Of a stretch of 64,000 nucleotides of DNA, positions 6,993 through 62,000 are shown in pieces. The DNA is taken from the NCBI GenBank assembly GCA_034440535.1, contig JAWXCD010000084.1, positions 5,353 through 69,352 on the forward strand, written 5' to 3'. The notes below the pieces were generated by a model that was not told where the DNA came from, did no database searches, and worked only from the letters and a program-made list of their open reading frames with translations. The DNA comes from Verrucomicrobiota bacterium (GTDB taxonomy: Bacteria; Verrucomicrobiota; Verrucomicrobiia; JAWXBN01; JAWXCD01). The translations under genes were made by a program, and so were the position numbers. Every line of letters begins with the position of its first letter. Position 1 is the first letter of the stretch.

Positions 6993-7048
6993 GATATAAA
7001 AATATATCATCGACTCCGGCCTGTCAAGTTTTGGGCCTTATAATCCAG

Positions 7049-7173: not shown

Positions 7174-7211
7174 TTTTGCTACACTCGTTAGTAACCGCTG
7201 AAAAATCAGCG

Positions 7212-7649: not shown

Positions 7650-7650
7650 C

Positions 7651-7905: not shown

Positions 7906-8037
7906 GCATACAATATAATGCATACATCAATCTAATGTCAACTGCACGGAGGCTACCTTGGATCAGCTGGGTGCTGTATCTCTCAATGTGGCATAGGCAA
8001 TCTTGTCTGTGCTTCGCAGATTTCATATTCTGCGATT

Positions 8038-8069
8038 CCCTTAAGCGAAACTCTAGCTTTGATGCGTCC
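8038..8069 (+). repeat. possible degenerate third copy (E3) of the intergenic element
   Basis: 'CCCTTAAGCGAAACTCTAGCTTTGATGCGTCC' aligns with gaps to the E2 core 'CACTTAGGGACCGACAAACTATAATCCTTCGATCATTGCGTCC'. Lies 9 nt from the trpG stop. Confidence 0.35.
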
Positions 8070-8078
8070 TTATTGGCC

Positions 8079-8654: not shown

Positions 8655-8663
8655 AAAATAAAA

Positions 8664-10157: not shown

Positions 10158-10160
10158 ATG

Positions 10161-10577: not shown

Positions 10578-10582
10578 CCCGG

Positions 10583-11341: not shown

Positions 11342-11524
11342 TCGGAGCCATCAGTTAAACGCAAATTCGAAAAAGGCAAAGGGAAAATATGCTGCCCACA
11401 CCTCCACTCTCCCATAAAGCGCCTTATTAAAATACGATCTGTTTTACCCCCTTCTTAGGTCGGTGCTCCCATTTTATGATTTATTATGACTTTCAATTAG
11501 CGCCGATTTTTCCTATCGAACCCT

Positions 11525-12160
11525 ATGACGACAGGCTATTTTATAACTGGAACTGACACAGGAGTGGGGAAGACCTACATTACGTCGCTCCTGCTCAAGT
11601 CCCTCGTAAAGATGGGGAAACGCGCTTGTGGATTTAAACCCATTTGTTGCGGGGATCGCGATGATGTTTTTGCATTATTAAAGGCGGGGTCAACGGATCC
11701 TCAACTCACCCCAGAGGCCATCAACCCCATTTGGTTACGTCCACCTGCAGCACCTTATACAGCCTGCATCATAGAAGAACGCGTCGTTGATATTCCCTTT
11801 ATTCACGAACATTTACAGCGCCTGACATCGTTTGAATTCGTTTTAGTCGAAGGTGCCGGGGGTTGGCGAGTGCCTATCCGGCAGGACTATTTCATAAGTG
11901 ACCTTGCTAAAGAAATAGGTTTCCCGGTCATTATCGTGGCCCGACTTGGACTCGGAACGTTAAATCACACTTTGCTGACAGTTGATTCTATCCGAAGCAC
12001 AGGACTGCCCATTGCTGGAATTATTGTAAATGATGCTGAAGGAACCGCTGACCCAATTGCGGCTTCCACTAACCCCGCTCTTCTCGAGCAACTCACCGGA
12101 GAAAAAATTCTGGGCACTATCGGAAAAGGCGAAATGGAAATCGATTGGCCACTCGGCTGA
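11525..12160 (+). CDS. bioD: dethiobiotin synthetase
   Basis: 211 aa. P-loop 'GTDTGVGKT' and 'VLVEGAGGW'. Confidence 0.9.
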   Translation: MTTGYFITGTDTGVGKTYITSLLLKSLVKMGKRACGFKPICCGDRDDVFALLKAGSTDPQLTPEAINPIWLRPPAAPYTACIIEERVVDIPFIHEHLQRLTSFEFVLVEGAGGWRVPIRQDYFISDLAKEIGFPVIIVARLGLGTLNHTLLTVDSIRSTGLPIAGIIVNDAEGTADPIAASTNPALLEQLTGEKILGTIGKGEMEIDWPLG

Positions 12161-12781
12161 TTACGAGCGGTTAATAACCCCAGCCGCGACAAACATAACG
12201 CAGGCTATTCCCGCTGCTGACTGGAGAGCGATATAAATAATGGCCAAACGGTGATATTTAATTTTGTTACTCAGGATAGCGCCTACGACAAGAATCTGGC
12301 GTTTATACTCTTCGAGGGACATCGCACCAGTGAAGTTGTCACTCAGTCGGTCGACGCATTCCTGGGCTTCTTCATAGTTTTTTTCGCTATAAACGCAGAA
12401 CAAAGTAGTAACCCCTTTCAACAGGGGCGAACTCATAAACGGACCTCGCGTATTAGGAGTGCGCGCGACGAGGCTCATAAGTGCATTGATAAATGCTAGA
12501 AACCCGAACGCCACGCCGCCAAACCAGAAAAGTAGCATCAAACCTTTGTCCATCCGACCTTTCGGGAGCAAAGACGATTCCATAATCGCTTGCACAAACA
12601 TTATGCACACCGGAAAAAATAAAAGTGCAAAGGTCAGAAGTATCACCACGATCAACAAAAACCCCGTTTTCATATCCGTGAACCTGATGATATCCTGCAA
12701 GTTCACGTAACCTTGCCTCGCGTGCTTGAGACCGGCAATCGATGTGTCGCCTTGGGGTAACAAAGTTGATTCGGACGCCAT
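12161..12781 (-). CDS. membrane protein resembling DUF5706 / Pycsar-effector-type TM domain (recalled family pattern, unverified)
   Basis: 206 aa. 'IIRFTDMKTGFLLIV' (compare the 'aDtKa' opening), two TM hairpins, and 'SLEEYKRQILVVGAILSNKIKYHRLAIIYIAL' near the C-terminus. Its stop abuts the bioD stop with 0 nt between them. Confidence 0.35.
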   Translation of the reverse strand: MASESTLLPQGDTSIAGLKHARQGYVNLQDIIRFTDMKTGFLLIVVILLTFALLFFPVCIMFVQAIMESSLLPKGRMDKGLMLLFWFGGVAFGFLAFINALMSLVARTPNTRGPFMSSPLLKGVTTLFCVYSEKNYEEAQECVDRLSDNFTGAMSLEEYKRQILVVGAILSNKIKYHRLAIIYIALQSAAGIACVMFVAAGVINRS

Positions 12782-22382: not shown

Positions 22383-22457
<75 letters not shown>

Positions 22458-26598: not shown

Positions 26599-26772
26599 CC
26601 TGTTGTTGACTCATAAGTCATTACACCGGCAACCGTGGAGGATGTCGATGAGTCAACAGGTCCTCCTAATCTCCTTTTTTCAATGGTTGACGCTGGTGAG
26701 GCAAAAAGATACGGTGTGCGCCCGGCATTATAAAAAAATAGATACACCTCGCTGGGAGCGGGGTTTTTTTTT
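26599..26772 (+). promoter_or_regulatory. structured 5' leader with two terminator-like hairpins upstream of the NDK-like gene (candidate attenuator, riboswitch or sRNA)
   Basis: Long hairpin CCTGTTGTTGACTCAT-33 nt-ATGAGTCAACAGG (26599-26660). An alternative GGAGGA(26637)/TCCTCC(26661) pairing is followed by T6 (26675-80). A second hairpin CCTCGCT-GGG-AGCGGGG plus T11 lies at 26747-26772, 19 nt before ATG 26792. Confidence 0.35.
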
Positions 26773-26791
26773 AGTGCTGGGTATAGAACAC

Positions 26792-27970
26792 ATGCCTGAA
26801 GAACTTTCATACGTCATTATTAATCCTACAACGATTTTTAAGTCGCGCACGGGCGGGGTCATAAACCGCTTACTCACGCGGACTCACCTGGATCTTGTCG
26901 CTGCACGTATGTTTTCTCCCGGGCAAAAGTTGGTCGAAGAATATGCTGGTTTGCACACCGCCACCAAGGTGGGTGACGCTGGGCGGGTTCAAAAACTGAT
27001 TCACGATTACGTTCTTAAACATTTCGGACCTGATCCAAAGACGGGTGGAAGGAAACGTGTCCTGGTTCTTTTACTCAAAGGGGAAGACGCGATAGCCAAA
27101 GTTCGGGCAGTAGTAGGTTCTATCCGGCATCATAATGTAGGTGGGGAAACCATTCGCGACACCTACGGCGATTATGTGACGGATGACAGCGGGAACGTTA
27201 TCTATTTTGAGCCTGCGGTCCTTGCCCCAACCAGCGCAGAAGAGGCTTCTCAACATTTAGCGGTTTGGACCAAGTTTTCAGACACAGATGGCGGCATTCT
27301 CGATAATGTGGTAGTTCATCAGCCCGAACAGAAGGTCGAACGCACGCTGGTCCTTATTAAACCCGATAACTTCACTTTCCCGACGGGTCGTCCAGGGAAC
27401 ATTATTGATATGTTTTCCAGGACGGGCCTTTACATCGTCGCCTTTAAGGTTCTTCGGATGAGCGTGGCTCAGGCGGAGGATTTCTATGGCCCGGTTCAAC
27501 CGGTTTTACGGGAGAAATTACGCGAACCGGTGGCTCAGCGCGCACGGGCGGTTTTAGAAAATGAATTTGCCAATATTAAATTCTCAGAAGAAACGGTCAT
27601 CAAGCTGGGCGATGTTCTGGGTCCCGTTTGTGCCGATCACCAATTTGAAAATATTGTGGAGTTTATGTCGGGTCGGCGCCCTTCACAGTGTCCGGAGTTC
27701 CTTAAAACTCAGGCCGGGGCCAGTATGTGCATCGGAATCATGTACGAAGGCCCTGACGCAGTAAGTAAAATCCGTGAGGTTCTAGGGCCTACGGACCCCT
27801 CAAAAGCCCCTCCGGGTTCTATCCGACGGGAGTTCGGTTCGAGCATCATGATCAATGCGGCCCATGCCTCTGATTCCACAGAAAGTTCAATTCGTGAATT
27901 TAAAATCGTGCAACTCGGCGAAAACAACTTTAAAGAAGTAGTCGACTGCTTTTACAAGAGTAACACCTAA
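26792..27970 (+). CDS. two-domain nucleoside-diphosphate-kinase-like protein
   Basis: The second domain has 'ERTLVLIKPDNF' and the active-site context 'NAAHASDSTESSIREF'. The first domain ('SYVIINPTTIFKSRTGGVINRLL') lacks the HxSD motif. ATG 26792 is preferred over the ORF-track TTG 26603, which would translate the hairpin/T-run leader. Confidence 0.7.
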   Translation: MPEELSYVIINPTTIFKSRTGGVINRLLTRTHLDLVAARMFSPGQKLVEEYAGLHTATKVGDAGRVQKLIHDYVLKHFGPDPKTGGRKRVLVLLLKGEDAIAKVRAVVGSIRHHNVGGETIRDTYGDYVTDDSGNVIYFEPAVLAPTSAEEASQHLAVWTKFSDTDGGILDNVVVHQPEQKVERTLVLIKPDNFTFPTGRPGNIIDMFSRTGLYIVAFKVLRMSVAQAEDFYGPVQPVLREKLREPVAQRARAVLENEFANIKFSEETVIKLGDVLGPVCADHQFENIVEFMSGRRPSQCPEFLKTQAGASMCIGIMYEGPDAVSKIREVLGPTDPSKAPPGSIRREFGSSIMINAAHASDSTESSIREFKIVQLGENNFKEVVDCFYKSNT

Positions 27971-32386: not shown

Positions 32387-32457
32387 CAAATTTTTTTGTA
32401 GGGATTTGATTTTTATTGAATTCCTTCTAAAGTATGGCGTCGAACAACTACATTTTT

Positions 32458-33054
32458 ATGAATAAAACTCCACTCCTTATCGTTTGCAGCGGCCTTTTCA
32501 TTGCTGGCTGCGCTACTTCAAACAAACCTAATGTCCGTTACGTTGACCCTCAAGCACAGGGTTCAGTTGCCGGAACGGGCATTGAATCGCAAGATTTAAT
32601 CCAAGTGACCGACAAGATGGCCCGGGCGATCTCGGCCACACCAAAAATTGCTTATGCCGACAGGGCGCCGACCATAGTGCTATTGCCAGTTGAAAACACC
32701 ACTCGATTCCCCATTGATAAAGATATATTTATTAAGCGAATTAAAGCCCAACTTGCGACAAAACTGGATGGAAAAGTCGTATTCGTGGCGAGGGACCGAA
32801 TAGAAGCCGTTCAGACCGAGCGGGAGTTAAAGGCCGATGGTAAAGTCACTTCCTCCGGTTCAAATAGAAAGATGACAGGAGCCGATTATTTTCTCACGGG
32901 TGAGTTAAGCGGACTCAGCCAAGCGAACTCGCGGGGGAATTCTGATTACGTCCTTTACACCTTCCGTCTGATCGACGCTGTCACGAGCAATCAAGTTTGG
33001 GAAGATTTTGTCGAAATAAAAAAAGAGGGTCAGGATAGCGGTGTTTACCGTTAA
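32458..33054 (+). CDS. LpoB-like (COG3417-type) lipoprotein
   Basis: Lipobox 'LFIAGCATS'. 'TIVLLPVENTTRFPIDKDIFIKRIKAQL' and 'ADYFLTGELSGL...YTFRLIDAVTSNQVWE' resemble the LpoB fold pattern. The ORF-track start is 32434. Confidence 0.55.
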   Translation: MNKTPLLIVCSGLFIAGCATSNKPNVRYVDPQAQGSVAGTGIESQDLIQVTDKMARAISATPKIAYADRAPTIVLLPVENTTRFPIDKDIFIKRIKAQLATKLDGKVVFVARDRIEAVQTERELKADGKVTSSGSNRKMTGADYFLTGELSGLSQANSRGNSDYVLYTFRLIDAVTSNQVWEDFVEIKKEGQDSGVYR

Positions 33055-33088
33055 GCCACTGAATACCCCATACGCCCACCACCACTCA

Positions 33089-34279
33089 ATGCGACTTATT
33101 TCAGCAGGAGCCTTGTGTGCAACAATTCTGCTTTCTTCGTGCGCGTCCACTTCGACAAACCCTTCTTCCAATGATTGGAAGGCCGCTCAAGCACGTGTGG
33201 CTGGAGAAGGTATACCTGAACCGTTGCGCATGTCGTACTCGGTCCTTTATGCCGACGAAGCCCGAAACCGTACGCTTAACTGGATGCGTCTCGGCACTGA
33301 GGCGCTTAAGGCCGGTCAATACAGCCACGCCAAACGTGCGTTCACTGAGTCCATTATCTTCATTGATAGTCTTCAGGCAGGTAACCGGGAAGCGGAACAA
33401 GCCAAAAGTAAATTTAAAGGTGAGGATTCAAAACCATTTAAGGGTGAGCCTTATGAACGTGTGATGGCGTATTTTTATCGGGCTCTCCTGTATTATCAGG
33501 ATGGCGAGTTTGATAACGCTATTGCGGCAGCTAAAAGTGGATTCCTTCAAGATAGTTCTAGCGAGGGTGAAAAATACCAAGCCGATTTCGTAGGATTAGA
33601 ATTCCTGACATGCCTTTCATTTCAGCAACTTGGACGTCAAAGCGATGCCGCCGATGCTTGGTCCCGAGCCCAAAAAATTAATCCTCAGTTACCTAAAGAA
33701 ATGCCCTCCATAAAATCTAATGTTTTAGTGGTGGCCAACTATGGAGACGCCCCAATCAAAGAAGGTTTCGGTGAGTACGGAGAAAAACTAAGGTTTTTCG
33801 AAGGCCATCGTACGGCTGAAGCTCTGGGTGTGCCTAAAGGTTGGGTGGCTTCCTCCGATATCTTGACTTATCAGGCAACCACACGCGGCGGTCGGAAAAT
33901 GGATCATGTTCTAGCAGGTAAAGCAGTCTTTAAAAAAGGCACTGACACAGCGGGTGATGTTTTAGTTGTTGGTGGAGCGGTTGCGGCCGTCCACGGGCTA
34001 GATAGCGGTAACGACGCCACAGCCATTGCGGGGGGCGCAGCAGTACTGGCTGGGATTATATCTAAAGCCATTTCTGCAGCCACGATTGCAAAGGCCGATA
34101 CTCGTTCATGGAACAATTTGCCAGCAGCAATCTTCCTTTCAACGGGGCCTATTCCTCCTGGGGCGAAGGGTACTGATATTGAATTCTTGAATAAAAATGA
34201 GTCTGTTGTCATCAAAGAGTCCATAAATCTTAATTCACCAAACACGAACAAACCAAATGTCATTTGGATCTGGAAATAA
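33089..34279 (+). CDS. lipoprotein with TPR-like helical region and a Gly/Ala-rich C-terminal segment
   Basis: ATG 33089 gives the lipobox 'LLSSCAST' (the ORF-track GTG 33041 overlaps the upstream gene). 'YERVMAYFYRALLYYQDGEFDNAIAAAKSG' is TPR-like. 'GGAVAAVHGL...AIAGGAAVLAGII' is a hydrophobic G/A stretch. Confidence 0.55.
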   Translation: MRLISAGALCATILLSSCASTSTNPSSNDWKAAQARVAGEGIPEPLRMSYSVLYADEARNRTLNWMRLGTEALKAGQYSHAKRAFTESIIFIDSLQAGNREAEQAKSKFKGEDSKPFKGEPYERVMAYFYRALLYYQDGEFDNAIAAAKSGFLQDSSSEGEKYQADFVGLEFLTCLSFQQLGRQSDAADAWSRAQKINPQLPKEMPSIKSNVLVVANYGDAPIKEGFGEYGEKLRFFEGHRTAEALGVPKGWVASSDILTYQATTRGGRKMDHVLAGKAVFKKGTDTAGDVLVVGGAVAAVHGLDSGNDATAIAGGAAVLAGIISKAISAATIAKADTRSWNNLPAAIFLSTGPIPPGAKGTDIEFLNKNESVVIKESINLNSPNTNKPNVIWIWK

Positions 34280-34282
34280 TAT

Positions 34283-34714
34283 ATGAAAAAATCATTACAC
34301 CTCCTTCTCTGCGCCGCTGGGATTATTGGATTAACCGCTTGCGCGACAAGCAACGATCAACCGAAGTACGTCGCACGCGGCACCAGCGCTCAAGATCGTC
34401 CTATTCGCACTATTTTCCTTGATGACAATTTGGGTGGAAGTTTGGCTGTGGATCGGGTCACGTTACAACGTGACCGCGACAATCGTCTCACCGTAAAGGC
34501 CGCCATTCGCAACTTAACGTCAAAAGATTACACTGTTCAGGCTCAAGCCATTTTCCGAAACCAGGACGGGTCTCTCGATACAACAGCATGGGAAGCGGTG
34601 ACACTCACTGACCATCAAGAAACTTATTTCACAACTAAATCAATGACCCCCCGCGTCGAAGACACTGTGACCGTTCAGTTCCGCGCTATGGCGCGCCGCG
34701 GTGCTCTGCGCTAA
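34283..34714 (+). CDS. YcfL-like (DUF1425-type) small lipoprotein
   Basis: Lipobox 'GLTACATS'. A beta-rich 'LTVKAAIRNLTSKDYTVQAQAIFRNQDG' pattern. Starts 3 nt after the preceding gene. Confidence 0.45.
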   Translation: MKKSLHLLLCAAGIIGLTACATSNDQPKYVARGTSAQDRPIRTIFLDDNLGGSLAVDRVTLQRDRDNRLTVKAAIRNLTSKDYTVQAQAIFRNQDGSLDTTAWEAVTLTDHQETYFTTKSMTPRVEDTVTVQFRAMARRGALR

Positions 34715-38491: not shown

Positions 38492-39139
38492 ATGGACAGC
38501 GAATATCTTGACATCAATTCCTGTACGGCAGGACAGCTTCATGAATTTACGGGTATTTCTCCTGACTTGGCGAAAGACATCGTTGATTACCGAGAACAAA
38601 AAGGCGCTTTTTATCATCTGAGCGAGTTGCTTGAAGTCCCTAAAGTTGATTCAAATACTTTTCAAGCTATCTCTGGATGCGAAGTGGGTAAACTCGATGG
38701 GTACTTAACGCGTCATAACATCAAGCGCATTATTAAAAACAAAGAGTGCTCAGCCTTTTCGTTTAAAGATATTGTCGCCCTCATCACAAAAATCCCAACA
38801 ATTAACGGTGCCATAGTGTGTTCAGACGATGGTTTACCCATTGCCATTGACGTTAAAGCCGGGGTGCCCTCCGACAAAATTGCAGCAGCTGTTTCAATGT
38901 GCTATAAACAGTTTTCCGAGAGCGTGAAGGTCATGAATCAGTCATCACTTAAAATGATGACCATGGATATTGAAAATTATACCATTTCCGTATTCCAACA
39001 GCAGAAAATCTTCCTCTTGGTATTGCATAAACCGAGTCAATACTCCACCAAAGCAAACGACATTTGTTCTCAGATTTTGGAAGAAGTCAGCGCAACAGCT
39101 GATACCCAAAAAATTCTTGTTGCCAAATTTCCGAGATAG
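38492..39139 (+). CDS. ComEA-like helix-hairpin-helix domain fused to a Roadblock/LC7 (MglB-like) domain
   Basis: 215 aa with no signal peptide. The N-terminal 'INSCTAGQLHEFTGISPDLAKDIVDYREQKGAFYHLSELLEVPKVDSNTF' is an HhH motif. The C-terminal 'INGAIVCSDDGLPIAIDV...KMMTMDIENYTISVFQQQKIFLLVL' is a Roadblock pattern. Confidence 0.6.
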   Translation: MDSEYLDINSCTAGQLHEFTGISPDLAKDIVDYREQKGAFYHLSELLEVPKVDSNTFQAISGCEVGKLDGYLTRHNIKRIIKNKECSAFSFKDIVALITKIPTINGAIVCSDDGLPIAIDVKAGVPSDKIAAAVSMCYKQFSESVKVMNQSSLKMMTMDIENYTISVFQQQKIFLLVLHKPSQYSTKANDICSQILEEVSATADTQKILVAKFPR

Positions 39140-39327: not shown

Positions 39328-41004
39328 ATGCATCTCGACCAATTACCTCGCCTTGATCTTAGACCTAAGATTTTGGTTCCTTTTATTCTGTCTTTTGTGG
39401 GCGTCATTGTTGTCGCTTTTTTGGCAAAATTGAGCGGTATTCTTGGAAAGCATTTAGAGCTTTCGACAAATAAGCTTTTAGCGAGATTAGCTGAAACTTT
39501 CATCTATTTCGACGAATTGTTCCTCCACCGTGAGTGGGTTCCTTACGCCACCAATCTTATTTTCTTTTTTGGAATGTTCATCCTCATCGTAAAAAATAGA
39601 AATGCCACTCGCCAAAATAAATATGAATGGAAGGGCATTATTCCCCGTAACTTCCACTTCATTTCCCCTCCTCAAGCCGGCGAAGAAGAGATGACTCGCC
39701 ATAAACAAGAAATTGAAAAATTAATCGCAAACATCATGAATAGCGTGGACATCACCAAAATGATGGTCCCAAACCGTATGTGCCGTATCTTGGCTTTCTG
39801 GCAAATCCTACCACACGGAGAACGAGCCATCCATTTCGCAGAAGAAGCTTCCCATCACGATCAACAAATGAACGAGGAGGGTTATATTCTGCCAAAAGCC
39901 CTCATTTGGGCGGTTCCTATCATGGGTTTGTTGGGCACGGTGTACGGGATCAGTCTTGCTATTACAGATTTCAATAAAGTTCTTCAGGCGGCTGAAGACA
40001 TGAGCAAAATTAAAGAATCAATCGGCGGCGTTCTTTTAGGTCTTGGCGTGGCGTTCGACGTCACCCTTCTAGCCTTGTCTGAAGCTACTGTTATCACGTT
40101 GCTCATGGCTTTCTACCGCAGGGACGATGACTCGATGATCCGTGAGACTGACGCCGCCATGCAAGATGAACTTCTTTGTCGTCTCCCTCAGGGTGAAGCA
40201 CATGGCGCGGGTCTTAGCACACCAGACATGAAAGAGGCTATCGAAGGAGCTGTTGCGAAATATTTCCCGAAACCAGAAGATTACGCTCAGGCCTTTGCCC
40301 ATGCTTTTGAACAAGCGGGCACCCATTTAAATGCACAAGTCGACCAAATTCGGGTCAACCTTGGTCATCATTTAGAAGTCCTTGAGAAACAATGGCAACA
40401 GCAAGCGGCGGCTTATGGGCAACAAACTCAGGAGCAAACGAACCAAATGATGGGCACATTGAATGATGGGTTTAGTCGTTTGAATGAAAATTTTAGTTCA
40501 GAAAGCACAAAAGTCGTCGATAACATGGCACAAAATTGGGCAAGGGCTAGTTCCAATCTTTATGACGACATGCAACAAGTCGTAAAACAACTTGTTGAAA
40601 CTGTCGGCAAAGTGGAAATCTCTGCTCAAGAAAATTATTCCCGCATGGTTAAGGAATTAACGGAGGACTTCGCAGAACTTCAACTTGGCAGTTCCACAAA
40701 CGTGGCGGCCATGGAAAAATTGTATACAGAAGTAAACAGGATTTTAGAAGGTCAGAAAGCTTCATTGGAAACAATTACGAGCAAGACAGACGCTCTCAGT
40801 CAGCATACTGACAGATTTGCGGAACTCATTGGTTCCCAAAAAGTGCTTGAGGCTAATCTTGCAGAGATACAAAAAGCGGTCTCGCTTAAAGAAAGCCTTG
40901 ATGCGTTCCGAGCAACACAGGAAGAACTCAAACCGCTTATCAGACAACTCGCTAAACCTCGAAAGATTTTGCTCACTGAAGAAGATTTGCAAAATAGTTT
41001 GTAG
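39328..41004 (+). CDS. MotA/TolQ/ExbB-family channel protein with a C-terminal coiled-coil tail of about 270 aa
   Basis: 558 aa. Four hydrophobic segments. TM3/TM4 carry 'AVPIMGLLGTVYGISLAI' and 'GLGVAFDVTLLALSEATVITLL' (compare ExbB 'GLLGTVWGI'). Residues ~290-558 are Q/E/K/L-rich helical repeats with no TM. Confidence 0.7.
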   Translation: MHLDQLPRLDLRPKILVPFILSFVGVIVVAFLAKLSGILGKHLELSTNKLLARLAETFIYFDELFLHREWVPYATNLIFFFGMFILIVKNRNATRQNKYEWKGIIPRNFHFISPPQAGEEEMTRHKQEIEKLIANIMNSVDITKMMVPNRMCRILAFWQILPHGERAIHFAEEASHHDQQMNEEGYILPKALIWAVPIMGLLGTVYGISLAITDFNKVLQAAEDMSKIKESIGGVLLGLGVAFDVTLLALSEATVITLLMAFYRRDDDSMIRETDAAMQDELLCRLPQGEAHGAGLSTPDMKEAIEGAVAKYFPKPEDYAQAFAHAFEQAGTHLNAQVDQIRVNLGHHLEVLEKQWQQQAAAYGQQTQEQTNQMMGTLNDGFSRLNENFSSESTKVVDNMAQNWARASSNLYDDMQQVVKQLVETVGKVEISAQENYSRMVKELTEDFAELQLGSSTNVAAMEKLYTEVNRILEGQKASLETITSKTDALSQHTDRFAELIGSQKVLEANLAEIQKAVSLKESLDAFRATQEELKPLIRQLAKPRKILLTEEDLQNSL

Positions 41005-41019
41005 CCCAATGATTGTCCA

Positions 41020-41634
41020 ATGATTAGAACCAAGAAAAAGGCAGTTAATAAGTCATTCGGATCTTCCATCCAATTCTTTGTTTTTCTCGACCCCCTTGCA
41101 GCCACTGTGGGGTGTCTCTCCTTTATTTTACTTATTCTAACTCTCACCATAAAACCAAAGGCAACTCCTGTCATTTTAAGCCAGGAACAAATCGCCGGTC
41201 TGGAAATTGACCCAGCCACCATTTTTATCGAAGCTAAACCTGATTCAATTGTTATTCATCCCGACCAATTGGAAATTCCATTGGATCATATCTTCTACGA
41301 TTCTGACGCTTTGAGCCCACTTAATTCGAAGATTGAAGCCATGTACGATCAGACAAAAAAACCCGTTCCCATGATGGTTTACATGCGAAACAACAGCCTT
41401 TCAACTTACAATCAGTTTCGCAATTCGATCGACATCCCTAAAGTCAACTTGACCTACGAACAATTGCCAGATTCGGTGAAGGTATTATCCGCATTACTTC
41501 CAGACGAAAGCATAGCTGCCAAGGAAAAGAAAATAAAAGAACTGATACAAGAGGGTATCGATTTTAGGAAAACAAATAAACCAGCGGTCGTCCCGCCCAA
41601 AAAAATGGAAGAACCTAATATTGCCCCTGAATAA
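41020..41634 (+). CDS. ExbD/TolR-like bitopic protein (N-terminal TM with Asp), divergent C-terminal domain
   Basis: 204 aa. A basic N-terminus, then 'IQFFVFLDPLAATVGCLSFILLILTL' (compare ExbD/TolR 'P.iDv..vLLifF'). Starts 15 nt after the MotA-like gene. Confidence 0.5.
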   Translation: MIRTKKKAVNKSFGSSIQFFVFLDPLAATVGCLSFILLILTLTIKPKATPVILSQEQIAGLEIDPATIFIEAKPDSIVIHPDQLEIPLDHIFYDSDALSPLNSKIEAMYDQTKKPVPMMVYMRNNSLSTYNQFRNSIDIPKVNLTYEQLPDSVKVLSALLPDESIAAKEKKIKELIQEGIDFRKTNKPAVVPPKKMEEPNIAPE

Positions 41635-41640
41635 TCCAAT

Positions 41641-42321
41641 ATGAGTGCGTCAGAAGGAGGAAAAGATGAAATAGAGGATTATTTCCAGACGTTTGTGGAC
41701 GTATTCTGCAACATCGTCGGTGTCCTCGTTTTCATTATTCTTTTTATTTCATTAATGATCAGTCAAACAACAGTGGCTGTAGTCGCGCCTCGAAATGTAC
41801 CTAGGAAAGCCCCCCCATCTGCCTACCTCGAATGTGATAACCAAAAAACCTATTTTATAGATGTCGCTTTCATTATGGAGGCTATTCAACAAGTGAATGT
41901 GAAAGTGAGCACACTTGCCCCCAACCTTCCCCCAGAGGAACTTTTATTCGAGGCGGACAATGCGATTCACCAAGCTGAATTTGACACTCTAAGCTACAGT
42001 GTGGATAAATCTAAAATACAATTAGCTATCATCGAAGTGAGGAGAAAGGATGTGGCCCACCCAGTCCCGATCATGGACCATTTGAACCCTGCACTAGTGG
42101 AAAAAACTAAAGAGTTTGATGCCTTTATGGCGGCCCTCGATAAAGTCAAAAAAGAAAACGGGTATTTATATTTTATAGTTCGACCAAAATCCTTGGACTA
42201 CTTCAATATACTACGCGACAAATTACAGGCTGACGGGTATCTTGTGGGATGGGAATTGAGACAAAAGGAAGATACACCTATTCGAATATCTTCTTCAAGA
42301 TCAGTAAAGGCAAATAAATGA
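41641..42321 (+). CDS. second ExbD/TolR-like bitopic protein, divergent C-terminal domain
   Basis: 226 aa. 'YFQTFVDVFCNIVGVLVFIILFISLM' is a TM segment with Asp at its N-terminal end. 6-nt gap to the preceding gene. Confidence 0.5.
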   Translation: MSASEGGKDEIEDYFQTFVDVFCNIVGVLVFIILFISLMISQTTVAVVAPRNVPRKAPPSAYLECDNQKTYFIDVAFIMEAIQQVNVKVSTLAPNLPPEELLFEADNAIHQAEFDTLSYSVDKSKIQLAIIEVRRKDVAHPVPIMDHLNPALVEKTKEFDAFMAALDKVKKENGYLYFIVRPKSLDYFNILRDKLQADGYLVGWELRQKEDTPIRISSSRSVKANK

Positions 42322-43430
42322 ACCAACCTGCTGCACCTCCATCCAGTATGGTTCTAAAGATTTCTATCGCTGGGGCAGCTCTCCTTCTTCTCTGCCTTGG
42401 GGGTTACTTTGGCTATAAATGGATCGAAAAATACCGTGGTGTCGTAAGTACGGTTAACACAGTGAAAGGAGTTTCAACCCCAACGACTGGCAAAATCGAC
42501 GTCCCTTTTGATCCCAAACTTTTGAAACTAGTTCTAGGTGATGACGAACTTGCCGAAGCGGTACTGTCGCTCATTGATAAGTACAGTCGAGAAGGCAAAA
42601 ATTTGTTATCCGAGGAAGGCGTCGCCGTGGTTGTCATGATGCTCCCAGGCAAAAGGGAGTCCATTACGATGAGTATTTTGGGCGCTGAGAGCATCTATAC
42701 CGAAAAAGTTCTTGCAAAAGGGTATTTTGAGGAAAGTTTACCGCCGAACATATTTGAACGGGTTAAAGATGCCTCCAACTTGTTTGGCCGAGAAATGAAT
42801 TTCCACAGTCTCGACCCCAAAGAAAAAGCTGAGTTGGAGCAAATATATTTGCAAGCTAAAGAAGGCAACATGGACCCCACAGCTAAATTTTTTGAAGCCC
42901 CGCATAAGTTTGGAGTTATTTTGCCGAACCCAAAGTCCGTTGTGAAAGGGAGCTTGGGAAATGATCTTGAAACTCTCGCTGGCTCGGGCTTAATTTCATA
43001 CAGGCAACCGACCACATTTTCCCTTCGTGCGGTCTGTACTGACGAGGACGCCAGTCGAAGAGTGGCAGACTTCGCCGACACAGTCAAAAAGTTAGCGCTC
43101 ATCAAACTTGGTGATGGAGCGAATCAGGACTCACGAGTTAACAATCTTTATACTCAGTTTAATAGTTCCGAGATCTCCACTAAGGGTCGTGTCTTTCAAA
43201 TAAAGGGGGTGCTCCCCCCTGAAATTACAAGTAGGGGTATTGCCAGTGTACCCAAATTTACCGACCGCCTTTCAAAAGCTCAGAAAGGGCTCGAGGTTCG
43301 GGACGCATCAAATATGGTATCCCCTCGCAAGACTTCAGCAGGACATTTGATCATTGATGGAGCAAAAGACTCTGGAACCAATGCTATTGATGACGGTATA
43401 CCTATTCCATCAACTCAAACGACGCCTTGA
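42318..43430 (+). CDS. bitopic membrane protein of unknown function (last gene of the MotA-like operon)
   Basis: 370 aa. ATGA overlap with the preceding gene. One TM segment, 'ISIAGAALLLLCLGGYFGY'. No Pro-rich spacer, TonB C-terminal motif or OmpA-like motif seen. Confidence 0.5.
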   Translation: MNQPAAPPSSMVLKISIAGAALLLLCLGGYFGYKWIEKYRGVVSTVNTVKGVSTPTTGKIDVPFDPKLLKLVLGDDELAEAVLSLIDKYSREGKNLLSEEGVAVVVMMLPGKRESITMSILGAESIYTEKVLAKGYFEESLPPNIFERVKDASNLFGREMNFHSLDPKEKAELEQIYLQAKEGNMDPTAKFFEAPHKFGVILPNPKSVVKGSLGNDLETLAGSGLISYRQPTTFSLRAVCTDEDASRRVADFADTVKKLALIKLGDGANQDSRVNNLYTQFNSSEISTKGRVFQIKGVLPPEITSRGIASVPKFTDRLSKAQKGLEVRDASNMVSPRKTSAGHLIIDGAKDSGTNAIDDGIPIPSTQTTP

Positions 43431-54063: not shown

Positions 54064-55797
54064 GTGTTGTACTCATTCACACCATTTTGGCAACAGTTAT
54101 CCATTCACCTTTTTTTGGGGTTAGTTTTTTTCTTTCCATCAACAGCTTCTGGCCAATCGGTTGTCGCATCATTACCAGGCCCTAAACAGATGTCCGTCGT
54201 TGAAATGAAACAGATAAAAGATACGGTCTCAGCTATATCAACAGGCGATGCAAAAACATTAAGCCACGATATCTATGTGTGGCTTGATGCGCATTATACC
54301 GCAGACGCCGTACTCACCCAAAATTGGCAGCAAATGTGGATTTATTACCAACTCATTGAGTTTAAATCGTACTTGGGCACTTTTCCAAATGAACTGTGGA
54401 CTTACTGTATTGATCACCCTGAATTCGCTCTCGATCTGTGCGAATCAATTAAGGATGAAGACAAAGTAAATCTGGTTTTGGAGCACCTTAATACTCTACT
54501 GACGCATGACCCAGTCGCATTTAAAGAATTTTACCGCGTTGCCATTGCTTTTAGTCTCGTTTGGGACCAGCCACCCCCTCTTCAAATTCACTTTCAAACG
54601 GGTACCGGTCGCATACCAGAGGATTCCTCAACGGTTATCTCACGTTTCGATTTTTATTGCTCAAAAAACAAAACGACAGCGTTGCGATATGATTTAAGAA
54701 AACTAACGGTTGATCAATTGATCTTCATCATCGATTCCGCTGTAGCCCTTTCGGAACTCGAATGGGCGTTAAAAAACGCTAAAACTTCGAGAAGTGATTT
54801 CGACAGTTTGTTTACTAGGATTCAATATGATTCCAAACGCCTAGACGAAGAGCGGTATCACTGGGACAAACCAAATTACACCCTGACCGAAATTGAAACG
54901 CACGGCGGAATTTGTGTCGACCAAGCCTATTTTGCATGCATTGCTGGGAAAGCCATGGGCATTCCTACCGTATTCTTCACTGGAACGGGCCAAAATGGTG
55001 GACATGCTTGGGTGGGCTTCATGAAATCACTTGGTAAATGGGATATGGAAGTGGGCCGTTACCAAAGCGGGCGTTATGTGACTGGGCACGCCCTCAACCC
55101 CCAAACGGGAAAGCTTATTTCTGATCATGATCTTGATTTGCTGACGAAAGGATTCCGTCAACTGCCAATGTATGAAAAGGCAACTTGGAATTATAAAGCC
55201 GGACGACTTTTTCAAAGTGCGAACAAGTCAAAATCTCTGAGTTGCGCAATGGCAGCCATCGGGATTTATCCACGCCATATTGAATCATGGGAACTTAAGA
55301 CCACCTTGGTTGAGTCAGATCCAAAGGCCCTGGAACCTCACCTGGAGAAAATGATACAAACATTCCAGTCTTACCAAGACATTAAGTTTGCGACGCAATT
55401 TAAGCTTATCCGTCTTTACGAAAAGTTAGGGCAAAAAGACAAAGTTAAAATGCTGAGTGGGAGTATGATCCGAAGAAGCGAGGACCGCCCAGACTTAGGA
55501 TTACAAATTGTGCGTCTCAATATTATTAATGCGTTACAAGAGGGCCAGGATCAAAAAGCATTGAACGAATTAAAAGGTGCAGCCCGTCGATTTCCATTGG
55601 AGTCTGGGCTAATGGTCAATCTACTGGAAGATTTTGTGGTGGTATGTGCCGAGTCAGGCAAATTAGATCTTGCCGAAAAAGGGATTTCTTACACAAAGGA
55701 AACCATTACGCGCAACTCATTAGTGGACAGGCAGTTGGAAGGGATAGAAGAAAAATGGCGGAGCCTACGGGGCTCGAACCCGCAACCTCTGCCGTGA
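54064..55797 (+). CDS. secreted transglutaminase-like cysteine protease-fold protein with C-terminal TPR-like helices
   Basis: 577 aa with a GTG start and signal-like 'LFLGLVFFFPSTASG'. Core 'GGICVDQAYFACIAGKAMGIPTVFF...GGHAWVGF' gives the Cys/His context. The last 42 nt are antisense to tRNA-Asp. Confidence 0.65.
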   Translation: MLYSFTPFWQQLSIHLFLGLVFFFPSTASGQSVVASLPGPKQMSVVEMKQIKDTVSAISTGDAKTLSHDIYVWLDAHYTADAVLTQNWQQMWIYYQLIEFKSYLGTFPNELWTYCIDHPEFALDLCESIKDEDKVNLVLEHLNTLLTHDPVAFKEFYRVAIAFSLVWDQPPPLQIHFQTGTGRIPEDSSTVISRFDFYCSKNKTTALRYDLRKLTVDQLIFIIDSAVALSELEWALKNAKTSRSDFDSLFTRIQYDSKRLDEERYHWDKPNYTLTEIETHGGICVDQAYFACIAGKAMGIPTVFFTGTGQNGGHAWVGFMKSLGKWDMEVGRYQSGRYVTGHALNPQTGKLISDHDLDLLTKGFRQLPMYEKATWNYKAGRLFQSANKSKSLSCAMAAIGIYPRHIESWELKTTLVESDPKALEPHLEKMIQTFQSYQDIKFATQFKLIRLYEKLGQKDKVKMLSGSMIRRSEDRPDLGLQIVRLNIINALQEGQDQKALNELKGAARRFPLESGLMVNLLEDFVVVCAESGKLDLAEKGISYTKETITRNSLVDRQLEGIEEKWRSLRGSNPQPLP

Positions 55798-55832
55798 CAG
55801 GGCAGCGCTCTAACCAATTGAGCTAAGGCTCC
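55756..55832 (-). tRNA. tRNA-Asp (anticodon GTC)
   Basis: The reverse complement is GGAGCCTTAGCTCAATTGGTTAGAGCGCTGCCCTGTCACGGCAGAGGTTGCGGGTTCGAGCCCCGTAGGCTCCGCCA. It folds as a cloverleaf with a CTGTCAC anticodon loop, a GTTCGAGC T-loop and an encoded CCA. Confidence 0.92.
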
Positions 55833-57626: not shown

Positions 57627-58928
57627 TTAACCGGCTTGAAGTTCCTTAATGATCGAAAGGAGAGGTAGAAACAAGGCGATGACAATTGTCCCGACGATAA
57701 CAGCAAGAAAAACAATCATGATGGGCTCCAACAATGAGGTAAGAGCCGCCACTGCATTGTCGACTTCCTCGTCATAATTATCCGCAATTTTCATGAGCAT
57801 TTCGGGTAATTGTCCTGTTTCCTCGCCCACATCAATCATACTGATCACCATCGGTGGAAATACACCACTTGCTTCCAACGGTTGTACGACAGACTCACCT
57901 TCTTTAACACTGTCATGAACCTTTCCAATGGCATTGGACAAAACAATATTGCCCGCAGTTTCGCGAGTAATATTTAAGGCTTGCAGAATGGGAACACCAC
58001 TCGTCACGAGGGTGCCTAATGTACGCGTAAACCGAGAAATGGCTGTTTTGCTTACCAAATCGCCCACCACCGGCATTTTGAGTTGGAGCCTATCCAATGT
58101 TTCACGGCCACTGGCGGTAGCAGAAAACATTTTGAATCCGAAAATCAGCCCAATGACTGTCACCACTAATCCTGCTAAAAAAGGCAAACTTTTGAAGACG
58201 TTACTCACCCCTATAACCCCCTGGGTTAAGAGAGGAAGTTTCGAACCGGGGGGCAACAGCTCCGTGAAAATAAGCTGAAACTTCGGCACGATAAAAAGCA
58301 TCAAAAATGCAAGAATAAGGAGTGCAATGGTGAGCACCACAATCGGATAAACCATTGCAGAGATGACTTTACCCTTGATCTTTTGAGACTTCTCTTGGAA
58401 GTCAGCAAGTCGTGTTAGGACAACTTCTAAAACACCACCAAGCTCGCCAGCTTTAACCATGTTCACGTACAGTTTATTAAATACACTGGGATGTTGTGCT
58501 ATGGTCTCTGAAAATGTATTTCCGCCCTCGACGGATTCCCCTAGCTTTTTGAGGATGATTTTTAATCCGGGGCTACGCTCCTGTTTTTGGAGTACCTTAA
58601 GACTCCTAAGGAGTGGGAGTCCCGCAGAAATAAGCGTGGCCAATTGGCGTGTAAAAATAGAAAGGTTCTTCGATTTTACTTTTACGCCACCACCACCAAA
58701 CCCCGGTATGGCAAAAGATTTGCGTTCACTTCCAGACGACTGAACCATCGTAGCAGCAGACTTATTTAATACTCCAGATTTGCCATTCTTCCCGGATTCC
58801 GCCACCGCTGTTGGGAAAAAACCCTGTTGTTTAAGGGAGTTCAGGGCATTGGTTTCACTATCGGATTCCATGCTTCCCTTGACTTCCTTGCCTAGGGAAT
58901 CCATTGCTGTGTATGTGTATGTCGGCAT
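57627..58928 (-). CDS. gspF: type II secretion / type IV pilus platform protein (GspF/PilC family)
   Basis: 433 aa. 'MPTYTYTAMDSLGKEVKG' start, two T2SSF repeats and three TM segments. Confidence 0.88.
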   Translation of the reverse strand: MPTYTYTAMDSLGKEVKGSMESDSETNALNSLKQQGFFPTAVAESGKNGKSGVLNKSAATMVQSSGSERKSFAIPGFGGGGVKVKSKNLSIFTRQLATLISAGLPLLRSLKVLQKQERSPGLKIILKKLGESVEGGNTFSETIAQHPSVFNKLYVNMVKAGELGGVLEVVLTRLADFQEKSQKIKGKVISAMVYPIVVLTIALLILAFLMLFIVPKFQLIFTELLPPGSKLPLLTQGVIGVSNVFKSLPFLAGLVVTVIGLIFGFKMFSATASGRETLDRLQLKMPVVGDLVSKTAISRFTRTLGTLVTSGVPILQALNITRETAGNIVLSNAIGKVHDSVKEGESVVQPLEASGVFPPMVISMIDVGEETGQLPEMLMKIADNYDEEVDNAVAALTSLLEPIMIVFLAVIVGTIVIALFLPLLSIIKELQAG

Positions 58929-59018
58929 TGCCTAGTCGTTAGTAATATGAAAATGGCAAACGCAACTGTTTGCAACTTTATTAAACTTAACGCACCTTTG
59001 AATTAAATCGAGATGCAC

Positions 59019-62000
59019 CTATCTCACGGTTTTTTTCAGCTTTTTTTTCAGCTTCGCGTCTTCATCTTGCGTTTGAAATACTAAACTATTCGCAAAATCT
59101 TCGTCGGCTGAAATATCGAAACTTGAGTATGACGCCAGCACCATTTGCTGTTTGCCTTGGCCAATAAGTCCTGAACTTGAGCCGGAAATCCCGTAGTATG
59201 AAAGCCCACTCCCAATTGCCAACCCCGGAGTCATCTCAAGCTGACTTTCATCCTTCGGCTGCAGGTACGAAAATGTTGTATTAACCGAATCACCAATCCG
59301 CAAGGCTTGAATGATCGGATCGATTGAAACTGTAAACACCGATGACGATGTAGTCGTACTTGTATTACCACCGGAACCACCACCAGAAACTATCGCAGGC
59401 CCACCCCCACCACCTGGAACCACCGCAGCAAGGCCAGTGATATCCACAGTCGCACTTTGAGGCGCGGGTAAAGTTTGCGCCACGCCGTTAACCGATACCG
59501 CACTGAATTGATTACCAGCGTTGTTCAGGATAAAGAAATTTCCCGCCCCTGAAGTTAAGGAAGTAGCGCCAAACACCGTCATGGCCCCCGTTTGCGTAAA
59601 ATCTCCTGCTAAAGCTGAACTCGTAGCGCTCAGAGCTCCAGCAATAGTTGATGCCCCGAAGTCTAGGTCATCCACATCCTGAACTGACACGTCATAAGCC
59701 GCGGTAACTGCCAATGTTCCAAAATCGTTGGCTGGGTTCGCCAAAGTAACGTTATACCCTGGAGCATTTACTGTGATGATGTTTGGAACAGTGAGCACTC
59801 CTGACTGCGTGATAGACCCCGTGGTGTTTATCGTAAGATTTTGCGCCACAGTTGAGGCTCCAAGGTCTATGGCATTTGAATCAGTGAATGAAGCACTATC
59901 CGCAGAAGTAACAATAACGGTGCTGAAATTGTTACCTGCGTTATTTAAAACAATGCTATTAGCCGCTCCTGCGTTAAATGTCGAAGTCCCTGTTACCGCG
60001 GCTACCCCCGTTTGAGTGACTGCACCATTGGCCGTTAAATCAAAAGCCCCAGCAATAGCCGAGGTCCCAAGAACCACATCGTCGGCATCAACAACTGTCA
60101 CCGCATTTCCTGTGAGAGCCAAAGTGCCGAAATCATTGGCGGCATCATCTACGGTTATGTTGTTTGCTCCGGCATTGAGTGTAGTCGTTCCCGCAACGTT
60201 TAAAGTGCCACTATCCGTTATTGCCCCACCTGAAAGGATAGTAAGGTTGCCCGTCACCGTTAAACCAGTCAGATCTACAGCTGTTGTATCTGTTATAGAG
60301 ACATTCGCTAATCCCGCAGGTCCTATGTTCAGAACCCCTGTAAATGTGTTTCCGACCGTATCTAATACAATGGACCCGCCCGCAGTACCCGTAAGAGTTG
60401 TCGTCCCCGTTACAATTTGAATTCCACTATCCGTCATTGAACCGGCAGTAATATTCAAATTTCCAGCAATTGTGGATGCGGCCAAATTGATATTATTGGC
60501 GACATTGTTAATGGTCACGTTATTAGCCGAGACAATACCTAACCCCGCTATGTTATTCCCAAAATCCAGTATAACGTCATTGACTCCTGCTGTGAAAGTG
60601 GCCGTTCCTCCGACTGTTAGCATCGCGGAGTCAGTAACACCTGCCGCCGTCACTGCCAGATTTCCTGTAATGGTCATCCCTGTCAGATCAATCGCTGTGG
60701 TATCAACTAAGGTGACATCTGATAACCCAACAGGACTCACTGTGACTGTTCCGGTAAATGTGTTACCAGCGGAATTGAGCGATACACTTGATCCCGCAAA
60801 GCCTGTGATAGATGTGTTTCCCGCAACAAGCAGGTTACCAGAATCAGTAATAGCTCCCCCGGCGGTTATTGTGAGGTTTCCACTCACTGTTGAACCACCC
60901 AAGTCTAAGGCATTGGAGTCAACCAGAATCACATTGTTACCTGTAACGATAGAAACAGCACCTCCAAAATTGTTACCAGCATTCGAAAGAGTAATGTTAT
61001 TACCTACACCAGCAGTAATTGATGTAGCACCCGTTACCGTTAGTGCTGCAGTTTGTGTCACAGCGCCGTTATCGACGAGAGCCAAACTACCGAAACTTGA
61101 AGCCCCGGTAAAGGCAGTAGGACCGTTGTTATTAATAAAAGCGTCGCCCGAAATAGCACTCGCCCCAATATTATTTACTAAAATGTTAACATTGTTTGCA
61201 AGTGTTCCGACAGTCGTAGCTGACCCAAAAGAAATCGTCCCTAAAGCACCACCCACCTGCATATCTAAGCTGGAGGCTCCTGGGGAAGTAATAGCTCCTC
61301 CCGTTGAAACACTTAATGTCTTATTATCGTTTAGCGTCAGAGATGTTCCAGCCGCAAAATTAAACGTGAGCGCACTTGTTCCGCCTTCGAGTGTTAAATG
61401 ATAATTTTCAGCAAATAAATTTATGGCCCCCACAGAACCTAAGCTCATGGTTCCCGAACCATCAGTGCGACCGATTGTTACGGTTCCGGTTGATGCCAGA
61501 ATTTGAAGTTCAGCAGCAGTGAGACTGAATGTTCCTGTCGCATCATTTAAAGCCAACGTTGTCGTCGTGGTAAATGGTTGAAGCGTAATTCCTCCGTTAC
61601 CCGTGATGACGCCACCCAAAGCAATCGTATCTGAGGTAACTTTGACCTGCGCAGTTCCTGCATTCACCGTTCCTGCAGCGGTATTAGAAAAGTCATTTCC
61701 TTGCGCGCTGATATTGATGTTATTATTACCACTACTCACGGCTCCAACCACTGCCAATGATCGACTGTCTTGAAGATTGATTTGACCTGTGGTGGTCGAA
61801 GTTCCCAGACGGGCCACTGAAAGGGTTAATGGGTCCGTAGTTGTTCCCACACTTGTCGCAGAAGTAAGGCGAACCGTTCCTAACGTTCCACCAATGGTGA
61901 TATCCGTTGCTCCTCCGGGGGAGGTAATGGCTCCACCATTGGCGAAAGTAAATGTTCTATCATTTGAAAGAGTTAAAGCGCCTCTCATTTCGACAGGACT

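Follow-up and report, generated by a model that had tools for sequence, protein, structure and literature searches.

A compact, divergent copy of a widespread MotA/ExbB/TolQ-type three-gene module, probably an ion-driven membrane motor, in a Verrucomicrobiota bacterium

To our knowledge, few families of ion-driven 5:2 motors have been characterised (MotAB, ExbBD, TolQR, AglRQS, GldLM and ZorAB), each of which has revealed a new way of turning the membrane potential into mechanical work. A locus that can be compared with these systems was followed up here in a stretch of 64,000 nucleotides from a Verrucomicrobiota bacterium (contig JAWXCD010000084.1 of assembly GCA_034440535.1), which is referred to as the window. 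It is made of four open reading frames (ORFs) on the forward strand, here called A, B1, B2 and C (Table 1), with spacings of 15, 6 and -4 nt between neighbours. An earlier note, made from the sequence alone, had described an orphan MotA/ExbB-type stator with a long coiled-coil tail, two ExbD/TolR-like partners and a further bitopic protein; the gene arrangement that it gave was confirmed, and the peptide strings that it quoted were all found in the translations. Published surveys of 5:2 motors cover the six families named above together with unclassified 'generic ion transporters' (PMC9389320, PMC12505986), and the literature search returned no paper describing the A-B1-B2 module. What is new here is thus a module that is described by no curated family library or paper found, and whose B subunits fall in no Pfam, NCBIfam or PADLOC model. 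The window holds a compact, divergent member of this widespread, uncharacterised family, and the account that we favour, with somewhat better than even confidence, is that the locus encodes an ion- or proton-driven 5:2 membrane motor of the MotA/ExbB/TolQ type, and that this motor represents a separate family that has not been curated.

By fold, the closest described systems are TolQ-TolR and ExbB-ExbD (PDB 9ddm, 9kpz, 6tyi, 5sv0), which give the best matches of protein A. A has in common with TolQ and ExbB the Gly-Thr-Val-x-Gly and the Thr-bearing signatures in the last two transmembrane (TM) helices, and in those systems, as here, a small bitopic partner carries an Asp in its TM helix close to the cytoplasmic end and is encoded directly downstream. 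Protein A contains four hydrophobic segments, with TM helices at about residues 16-37, 70-90, 187-210 and 230-255. Pfam MotA_ExbB (PF01618) matches residues 171-265 at 26.4 bits, above the gathering cut-off of 22.9 (E 6.5e-6). The signature residues are G203-T204-V205 and A242-F243-x-T246; indeed, 50 homologs show no change at G203, T204, V205, G207, A242, F243 and T246, all of which lie within the last two TM helices. The same 50 homologs were used to model A with AlphaFold2, which gave a mean pLDDT (predicted local distance difference test score) of 73.6 and about 90 in the membrane core. When this model was compared with the PDB by Foldseek, the best matches were TolQ of E. coli and A. baumannii, ExbB, type I ZorA and MotA, with probabilities of 0.9-1.0 and TM-scores of 0.45-0.59 normalised to the target, and nearly all of the top 40 PDB fold matches were TolQ, ExbB, ZorA or MotA chains. 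A is therefore a real protein of the MotA/ExbB/TolQ superfamily, as the earlier note had claimed from the four hydrophobic segments and the signature of the last pair.

Unlike TolQ and ExbB, A has four TM helices and a tail of about 290 residues; four TM helices are the MotA arrangement. In ExbB, TolQ and MotA, Thr residues of the ion path lie in the helices that correspond to the last two of A, and the conserved Thr pair of A is a putative counterpart of T148/T181 in ExbB and T145/T178 in TolQ. As for the topology, basic residues come after TM2 and TM4, and an N-terminal zinc ribbon, which is a cytoplasmic type of domain, is present in 99 of the 151 family representatives, the copy in the window being without it. 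Taken with the four segments, these features suggest that the N-terminus and the tail of A both lie in the cytoplasm.

The locus is not an orphan. The module to which A-B1-B2 belongs, as a divergent copy, occurs in Planctomycetota, Verrucomicrobiota and Myxococcota-type metagenome-assembled genomes (MAGs). A word-index homology search with A returned 3 proteins only, and an exhaustive profile search returned 3606 at E<=1e-3 and 539 at E<=1e-30 (50%-identity representatives). Scanning one genome per species yielded 34 loci, which are numbered with the prefix L where one has to be told from another. The carriers include, in Planctomycetota, Planctomycetaceae, Pirellulales, Gimesia, Kolteria novifilia Pan216, Maioricimonas, Mariniblastus, Gemmataceae, Thermoguttaceae and Phycisphaeraceae, and in Verrucomicrobiota, Opitutae, Methylacidiphilum and Roseibacillus; B2 homologs are also found in Myxococcota-type and 'Deltaproteobacteria' MAGs, none of them with a Pfam domain. 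The order A, B1, B2 with short gaps is kept in about 25 loci from Planctomycetota, Verrucomicrobiota, a Myxococcales MAG and a 6.2-Mb contig. When all ORFs from 35 loci were clustered, only A and B recurred, and there was no conserved neighbour (antisense ORFs that overlap the module genes recur as well, and are artefacts). Two of the loci beyond Planctomycetota and Verrucomicrobiota (L043, L045) carry A-B1-B2 among housekeeping genes, for example those for a class-I aminoacyl-tRNA synthetase, an inositol-1-phosphate synthase and a UvrD-type helicase. For typical members of the family, NCBIfam (June 2026) holds no model for A, B1 or B2.

In the window, A is an outlier that is about 20-29% identical to other family members, and its only close relative in public data is the protein P0002. 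B1 and B2 each have a single N-terminal TM helix, in which D24 of B1 is aligned with D20 of B2. In B2, D20 is invariant in 65 homologs, and T21 and N24 are among the near-invariant polar positions; the TM helix also contains G27, and B2 further has a 'P-x-P-R' motif and a periplasmic alpha/beta domain that ends in 'YLYFIVRPKSLDYF...GYLVGW'. The TM helix, polar residues included, is the best-conserved part of both proteins, and the arrangement of one N-terminal TM helix with an Asp, known from ExbD, TolR and MotB and already proposed for these two proteins, is supported by these alignments. The two subunits differ across the family in the residue at the Asp position. In B2 it is Asp in 25 of 25 loci; for B1, 29 loci have Ser, and an Asp is confined to the window and its nearest relative (L004), whose partial B1 is 64% identical to that of the window.

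In the related loci, the gene after A codes for a protein of about 265 residues with the TM motif 'SLFPFLSILACVIG' and the next one for a protein of about 370 residues with 'LDSLLDTMTNVVG'. The window proteins are linked to these families by their C-terminal domains. Indeed, a hidden Markov model (HMM) of the B2 C-domain matches window B2 at residues 50-211 (30 bits, E 1.6e-10), and the corresponding model of the B1 C-domain matches window B1 at residues 55-135 (14.7 bits, i-E 6e-6 in a 5-protein search); the B1 domains were aligned alone, since MAFFT misaligned the domain of window B1 against the stalk-bearing homologs. B1 and B2 are themselves paralogous families, as indicated by hhalign of their domains (E 4.9e-5, 68% probability) and by one shared BLAST cluster. 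Most B1 and B2 homologs have a coiled coil of about 100-140 residues, here called the stalk, between the TM helix and the globular domain, and most B2 homologs (L005-L038) end in a Pro-rich C-tail of about 20-50 residues followed by a conserved terminal 'x-I-D'; this Pro-rich tail could be a built-in spacer. The copy in the window is without all four of the usual accessories, namely the zinc ribbon of A, the Ser of B1, the stalks of B1 and B2 and the Pro-rich C-tail of B2. A similarly compact, stalk-less module is found in a Gemmataceae MAG (L025, positions 4764-12390), where A, B1 and B2 have 431, 157 and 220 residues, with an 896-residue TPR protein encoded upstream and a 729-residue protein with an N-terminal zinc ribbon downstream.

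The likeness of B1 and B2 to ExbD and TolR is a different matter once the membrane is left. None of the Pfam, NCBIfam or PADLOC models matches window B1 or B2. The B1 C-domains alone gave no ExbD or OmpA match in Pfam at E up to 10, and neither family is among the 25 most frequent Pfam families listed for 16 full-length B2 and 17 full-length B1 homologs. With profiles of the B1 and B2 families over their full length, PDB sequences and Pfam yielded only coiled-coil noise, the B1 C-domain profile retrieved no ExbD or TolR chain from PDB sequences, and phmmer with E. coli ExbD and TolR found nothing among all six-frame ORFs of the window and the loci. In ExbD and TolR a hairpin is followed by a helix, a strand, a second helix and a second strand. 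In the AlphaFold model of B2 (pLDDT 73.1) the elements come in the same order with an insertion: a hairpin at 59-73, a helix, the insertion, a helix at 157-171, a strand at 175-180, a helix at 182-197 and a strand at 202-206. Foldseek of this model against the PDB gave nothing significant, and its best match (E 0.41) was neither ExbD nor TolR. Profile-profile comparison by hhalign gave probabilities below 1% against E. coli ExbD and TolR, and against an ExbD/TolR profile of 10 sequences (annotated plasmid genes plus two PDB-verified sequences) it gave alignments that are collinear, with probabilities of only 0.6-6.8%. In the B2 alignment (6.8%), D20 falls on the ExbD Asp, 'RLPdPRpaP' on the post-TM 'V.LP' and the hairpin on the hairpin; in the B1 alignment, 'VIFLVR.DgV.TY' falls on the ExbD/TolR 'v.i.AD...y'. 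All in all, the ExbD-likeness of B1 and B2 is limited to the helix with its Asp, and beyond it is only suggested by the predicted order of secondary-structure elements. The description of these proteins as two ExbD/TolR-like partners therefore holds for the TM helix and the Asp, the periplasmic domains having no significant ExbD or TolR match by HMM, profile-profile or Foldseek comparison. The remark that their C-terminal parts hold no recognisable OmpA/MotB-type or TolR-like motif is in line with the model searches, in which no OmpA, ExbD, TolR or ZorB model matched.

With regard to gene layout, the locus recalls AglR-AglQ-AglS of Myxococcus xanthus, in which one TolQ-like and two non-identical TolR-like subunits are encoded together, and one way to read it is as a motor for surface motility or secretion like AglRQS or GldLM: the A ring would be fixed by its cytoplasmic parts and B1-B2 would form a rotating periplasmic shaft that drives a machine at the surface or in the outer membrane. 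The stalks of both B subunits in most members, if extended, could span the periplasm as in GldM; indeed, GldL-GldM of type IX secretion and gliding is also of the 5:2 type, and its long periplasmic extension resembles them. The occurrence of the family in Myxococcota-type MAGs would fit this reading as well, as would the protein encoded just upstream of A in the window, in which a ComEA-type HHH_3 domain (58 bits) is fused to an MglB-type Roadblock/LC7 domain (25 bits, cut-off 23). The gene for this protein is kept in near-identical contigs, but in L004, where the A ortholog is 51% identical, it was not found upstream; it was therefore rejected as a conserved part of the unit and is not counted in it. 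Moreover, the B1 and B2 of the window have no stalks, no Glt, Gld, Spr or type IX secretion system gene recurs beside the module in the 35 loci, and AglQ and AglS are ordinary members of the ExbD family, whereas B1 and B2 match no ExbD model. Compared with AglRQS, to which the locus is likened by layout, A also has its extra tail and no Glt genes lie nearby; compared with GldL-GldM, no sequence or model match was seen and the ion-coupling residues differ. GldL uses Glu and GldM uses Arg in this role. A motor of the AglRQS or GldLM type is thus unlikely.

A divergent Ton or Tol system, in which A would be the ExbB or TolQ, B1 and B2 the ExbD or TolR, and C a transducer to the outer membrane like TonB or TolA, has in its favour that the folds nearest to A are those of TolQ and ExbB, that the collinear profile alignments of B1 and B2 to ExbD, weak as they are, exist, and that the layout resembles exbB-exbD-exbD-tonB. 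For bacteria of the Planctomycetes-Verrucomicrobia-Chlamydiae (PVC) group, clusters have been described in which a vWA 'force transducer' accompanies a tolQ-like gene and two tolR-like genes that differ from each other (PMC12204202, section 8), and the locus resembles them too, with overlapping taxa (Planctomycetes and Verrucomicrobia), the same core layout plus a bitopic protein and, in L025, an upstream TPR gene. The role of a transducer would fall to protein C, the start of which overlaps the stop of B2 by 4 nt, so that co-expression is suggested and the two are probably co-translated. However, C gave no Pfam (E <= 1), NCBIfam or PADLOC match and no PDB sequence match, and hence no TonB C-terminal domain is shown; its TM segment contains neither His nor an SHLS-type motif, and its translation has no long Pro-rich region. 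The earlier description of C as a protein with one hydrophobic segment that lacks a Pro-rich spacer and a TonB C-terminal domain is accordingly unchanged. Positive charges come after the TM segment of C, not before it, which leaves its orientation uncertain; by the positive-inside rule the bulk of C may be cytoplasmic. Among 5.8 billion clusters, the only homologs found for C were those of its own 90% cluster, and C was not found downstream of B2 in the other loci. C is thus a lineage-specific extra gene and not part of the conserved module.

The rest of a Ton or Tol system was not recovered either. When Pfam, NCBIfam and PADLOC models were run on the four proteins, the only match above a cut-off was that of A to MotA_ExbB, and an ordinary ExbB/ExbD/ExbD/TonB set did not emerge; no ExbD, TonB_C, TolA or vWA model matches B1, B2 or C. 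In contrast to TolR and ExbD, which form homodimers, there are two different B subunits with unmatched periplasmic domains, and in contrast to the Tol and Ton systems, no TonB, TolA, Pal, TolB or TonB-dependent receptor was found here, Pal, TolB and the receptor being missing among the window ORFs scanned. The PVC clusters with a vWA transducer, which were compared by description only, differ in that C is without vWA, SHLS or His and that no vWA or TPR gene recurs in the 35 loci. A divergent Ton or Tol system is therefore also improbable, slightly more so than a gliding-type motor.

Several observations weigh against the motor that we favour and the envelope role ascribed to it below. A profile of the A core alone reaches TolQ among PDB sequences at E 0.58 only, which makes A very remote from the solved motors. 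The B periplasmic domains find no significant ExbD or TolR counterpart (hhalign below 7%, Foldseek best E 0.41), and most family members have one Asp per presumed axle, unlike the characterised homodimeric 5:2 motors. Gimesia-type loci from Gimesia and Planctomycetaceae (L008, L011, L013, L020 and L027) have A and B1 adjacent and no adjacent B2, the gene after B1 in L011 being a 436-residue ORF on the opposite strand; this clade may have lost B2 or may encode it at another place. The N-terminus of window B2 (41641-41700) is net acidic (MSASEGGKDEIEDY) compared with a strongly basic one in the homologs (MARRRK...). Finally, the envelope role is drawn from context alone. As an observation in its own right, an acidic N-terminus is odd for a bitopic protein whose N-terminus faces the cytoplasm.

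Some of these observations also feed the suspicion that there is no working motor at all, A being a degenerate scaffold or channel of the MotA/ExbB fold and the bitopic proteins unrelated partners. The marginal Pfam match, the extreme sequence distance to solved motors, the B domains that cannot be classified and the single Asp per pair in most members would agree with such decay. Against it speak the Gly-Thr-Val and Ala-Phe-x-Thr of A and the Asp of B2, which are invariant across dozens of distant homologs, together with the B TM helices, which are the best-conserved parts of these proteins, and the tight coupling of the genes across phyla. A degenerate scaffold is thus very unlikely.

The tail of A, which begins at about residue 269 and runs to residue 558, brings in the last of the described systems. 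These roughly 290 residues beyond TM4 (A 11%, L 10.7%, E 10.3%, Q 9.7%) contain no further TM segment, and AlphaFold predicts helices at 316-391, 396-500 and 507-541 with low-confidence breaks between them. Its hydrophobic residues recur with a period of 3.6-3.67 residues (z 8-11 in comparison with shuffles), and the heptad value of 3.5 gives a z of about 0, so that the tail is not a classical heptad coiled coil. What had been described as a long coiled-coil tail is thus helical and without further TM segments, as stated, and the term coiled coil is correct only in a non-heptad sense. The periodicity fits a right-handed or straight bundle as in ZorA, or amphipathic helices like those of apolipoproteins; for the pentameric ZorA tail, a right-handed bundle has been reported (PMC11946911). 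In comparison with P0002, the nearest ortholog (51% identity overall), A is 70% identical over its last 52 residues, 64.5% over the TM core and 21% over the first tail helix. The tip is thus under constraint, and the tail is more than low-complexity filler; the earlier note had allowed that the tail might prove to be unconserved low-complexity sequence, and this did not turn out to be so. When the full-length family-A profile was searched against PDB sequences, apolipoprotein and coiled-coil matches to the tail dominated, apolipoproteins being at the top, and the tail of a solved ZorA (8qyd_A) was matched at E 8e-7; since apolipoproteins score higher, the ZorA matches may reflect composition. 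In the family, the tail ranges from 55 to 767 residues (median 235 in 137 representatives), and nearly tail-less A proteins occur in complete modules (363 residues in L045, 346 residues in Opitutae). It is not a family constant, and the tail of A is therefore a family accessory and not a hallmark. The proposal that the output of the motor is an intracellular tail is weakened by this variation; the B subunits are the constant partners. That the tail is helical and its tip conserved is nevertheless supported.

ZorA-ZorB (PDB 8qyd, 8vvn) resembles the locus in that a MotA-type subunit is followed by a long helical cytoplasmic tail, and ZorA models weakly match the core and tail of A. The locus differs from it in the model scores, which remain far below cut-off for A, in having no ZorB-type peptidoglycan-binding domain, in its two B genes and in having no ZorC, ZorD, ZorE, ZorF or ZorG; A-B1-B2 also occurs in housekeeping surroundings, in several phyla and with tails of widely differing length. 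A Zorya-like anti-phage sensor, in which A5B2 would sense envelope damage, rotate the tail and activate effectors (C or proteins encoded elsewhere), can be set aside as highly improbable, since the matches that speak for it (PADLOC ZorA3 9e-10, the ZorA1 tail 1.2e-5 and NCBIfam ZorA_4 1e-10, along with the 8qyd_A tail, type I ZorA among the fold matches, the conserved tip and a periodicity compatible with the right-handed bundle of PMC11946911) stand at 41 bits against a cut-off of 500 for ZorA_4 and at 16-36 bits over partial lengths for PADLOC ZorA, may be compositional in a tail that is short or missing in some members, and come with neither a peptidoglycan-binding or ZorB match in B1 and B2, nor any ZorC-G or other PADLOC match on the five proteins scanned beyond the weak ZorA matches to A, nor a conserved effector neighbour in the 35 loci, and since the flanking genes in the window and in L043 and L045 are housekeeping ones.

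Canonical Ton, Tol, flagellar stator and Zorya systems were all rejected, as their partner genes and family-level matches are missing. The statement that the gene set is unlike any of these four accordingly remains in place, with no TonB_C, ExbD, OmpA or ZorB-G match, no receptor gene among the larger flanking ORFs scanned and no conserved neighbour in 35 loci. For the 5:2 motor of a separate family, which we consider the likeliest account, a mechanism can be proposed by analogy with the superfamily. Five copies of A would form a ring, the stoichiometry being that of the superfamily, and one B1 and one B2 would pass through it as a heterodimeric central axle by means of their conserved TM helices. 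The ion path would be made of the Asp on the B helices (D20 of B2 and, in the window, also D24 of B1) together with the Thr pair T204 and T246 of A, and ion flow would turn the A ring relative to the B1-B2 axle. In the periplasm, the alpha/beta heads of the two B subunits would grip an envelope component or pull on it, and the ring would bear a cytoplasmic helical bundle formed by the tails with their conserved tip; the tail of A probably contacts a cytoplasmic partner or regulator. The copy in the window would be a compact variant of this plan, without stalks or a zinc ribbon, with an Asp in both B subunits and with the lineage-specific C as an extra gene. From the setting and the distribution, the role is probably a housekeeping function in the cell envelope rather than phage defence or TonB-type import.

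As for the setting, the G+C fraction is 0.42-0.44 across the motor genes, like that of the downstream neighbours, with no sharp island boundary in base composition, and a promoter and terminator scan gave sites no more frequent than in shuffled sequence. The flanks of the window code for glycosyltransferases, a TMEM260-like protein, YfhO, MazG, a GH38 mannosidase and LpoB. No genes for TonB-dependent receptors were found among the 19 larger flanking ORFs scanned, and defence genes were likewise missing among them; with regard to the earlier question of whether the cluster sits in a defence island or next to such receptors, the surroundings are thus of a housekeeping kind. The other features of the window are listed in Table 1 together with the genes of the locus.

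Table 1. Coordinates of the motor locus and of other features in the 64,000-nt window
Feature	Position	Strand	Description
A subunit	39328..41004	+	558 aa; 4-TM MotA/ExbB/TolQ-type core and helical cytoplasmic tail (predicted)
B1 subunit	41020..41634	+	204 aa; basic N-terminus, one TM helix with D24, periplasmic domain at ~55-135 (predicted)
B2 subunit	41641..42321	+	226 aa; one TM helix with D20, periplasmic alpha/beta domain (predicted)
C	42318..43430	+	370 aa; one N-terminal hydrophobic segment; no relatives outside its own cluster
HHH_3 + Roadblock/LC7 protein	38492..39139	+	215 aa; 188-nt gap to A; membership doubtful
Class A bacterial RNase P RNA	4829-5197	+	223 bits
tRNA gene	22386-22457	-	
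tRNA gene	55759-55832	-	

Three further regions of the window were recorded. On the forward strand, positions 32434-34714 hold a run of three genes for an LpoB-like lipoprotein, a 412-residue TPR protein and a 143-residue ORF without a Pfam match, the N-terminus of which resembles a lipoprotein signal. Also on the forward strand, positions 26603-27970 code for a 455-residue protein in which three stretches match the nucleoside diphosphate kinase domain, an unusual architecture with several copies of this domain. On the reverse strand, positions 57627-63887 code for a 1622-residue protein of DUF5649 repeats (8 stretches, 275 bits), which adjoins a T2SSF gene, that is, a platform gene of type II secretion or type IV pili.

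A broader and more tentative proposal, which we regard as possible and rather doubtful, is that A-B1-B2 forms a distinct class of 5:2 rotary motors spread over several phyla. In it, an obligate heterodimer, with only one protonatable Asp in most members, would serve as the axle, and ion flow would be coupled to a periplasm-spanning coiled-coil shaft on one side and to a cytoplasmic helical tail on the other. Such a motor might serve a core envelope process of Planctomycetota and Verrucomicrobiota, for example the remodelling of the wall or outer membrane in unusual division or uptake, that is not accounted for by any known Tol, Ton, flagellar, gliding or Zorya system, and the window would hold a minimal variant of it that has two Asp, lacks stalks and includes a new subunit, the fourth. 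If this were true, the minimal variant would be useful for dissecting the core mechanism, and the heterodimeric axle (Asp and Ser in most members, Asp and Asp here) and the paired periplasmic and cytoplasmic extensions would bear on 5:2 motors generally. As the carriers include a cultured organism with a complete genome, Kolteria novifilia Pan216 (L010), the question is open to experiment. The module is common in Planctomycetota and Verrucomicrobiota, and it could mark an envelope machine of these bacteria that has so far gone unrecognised.

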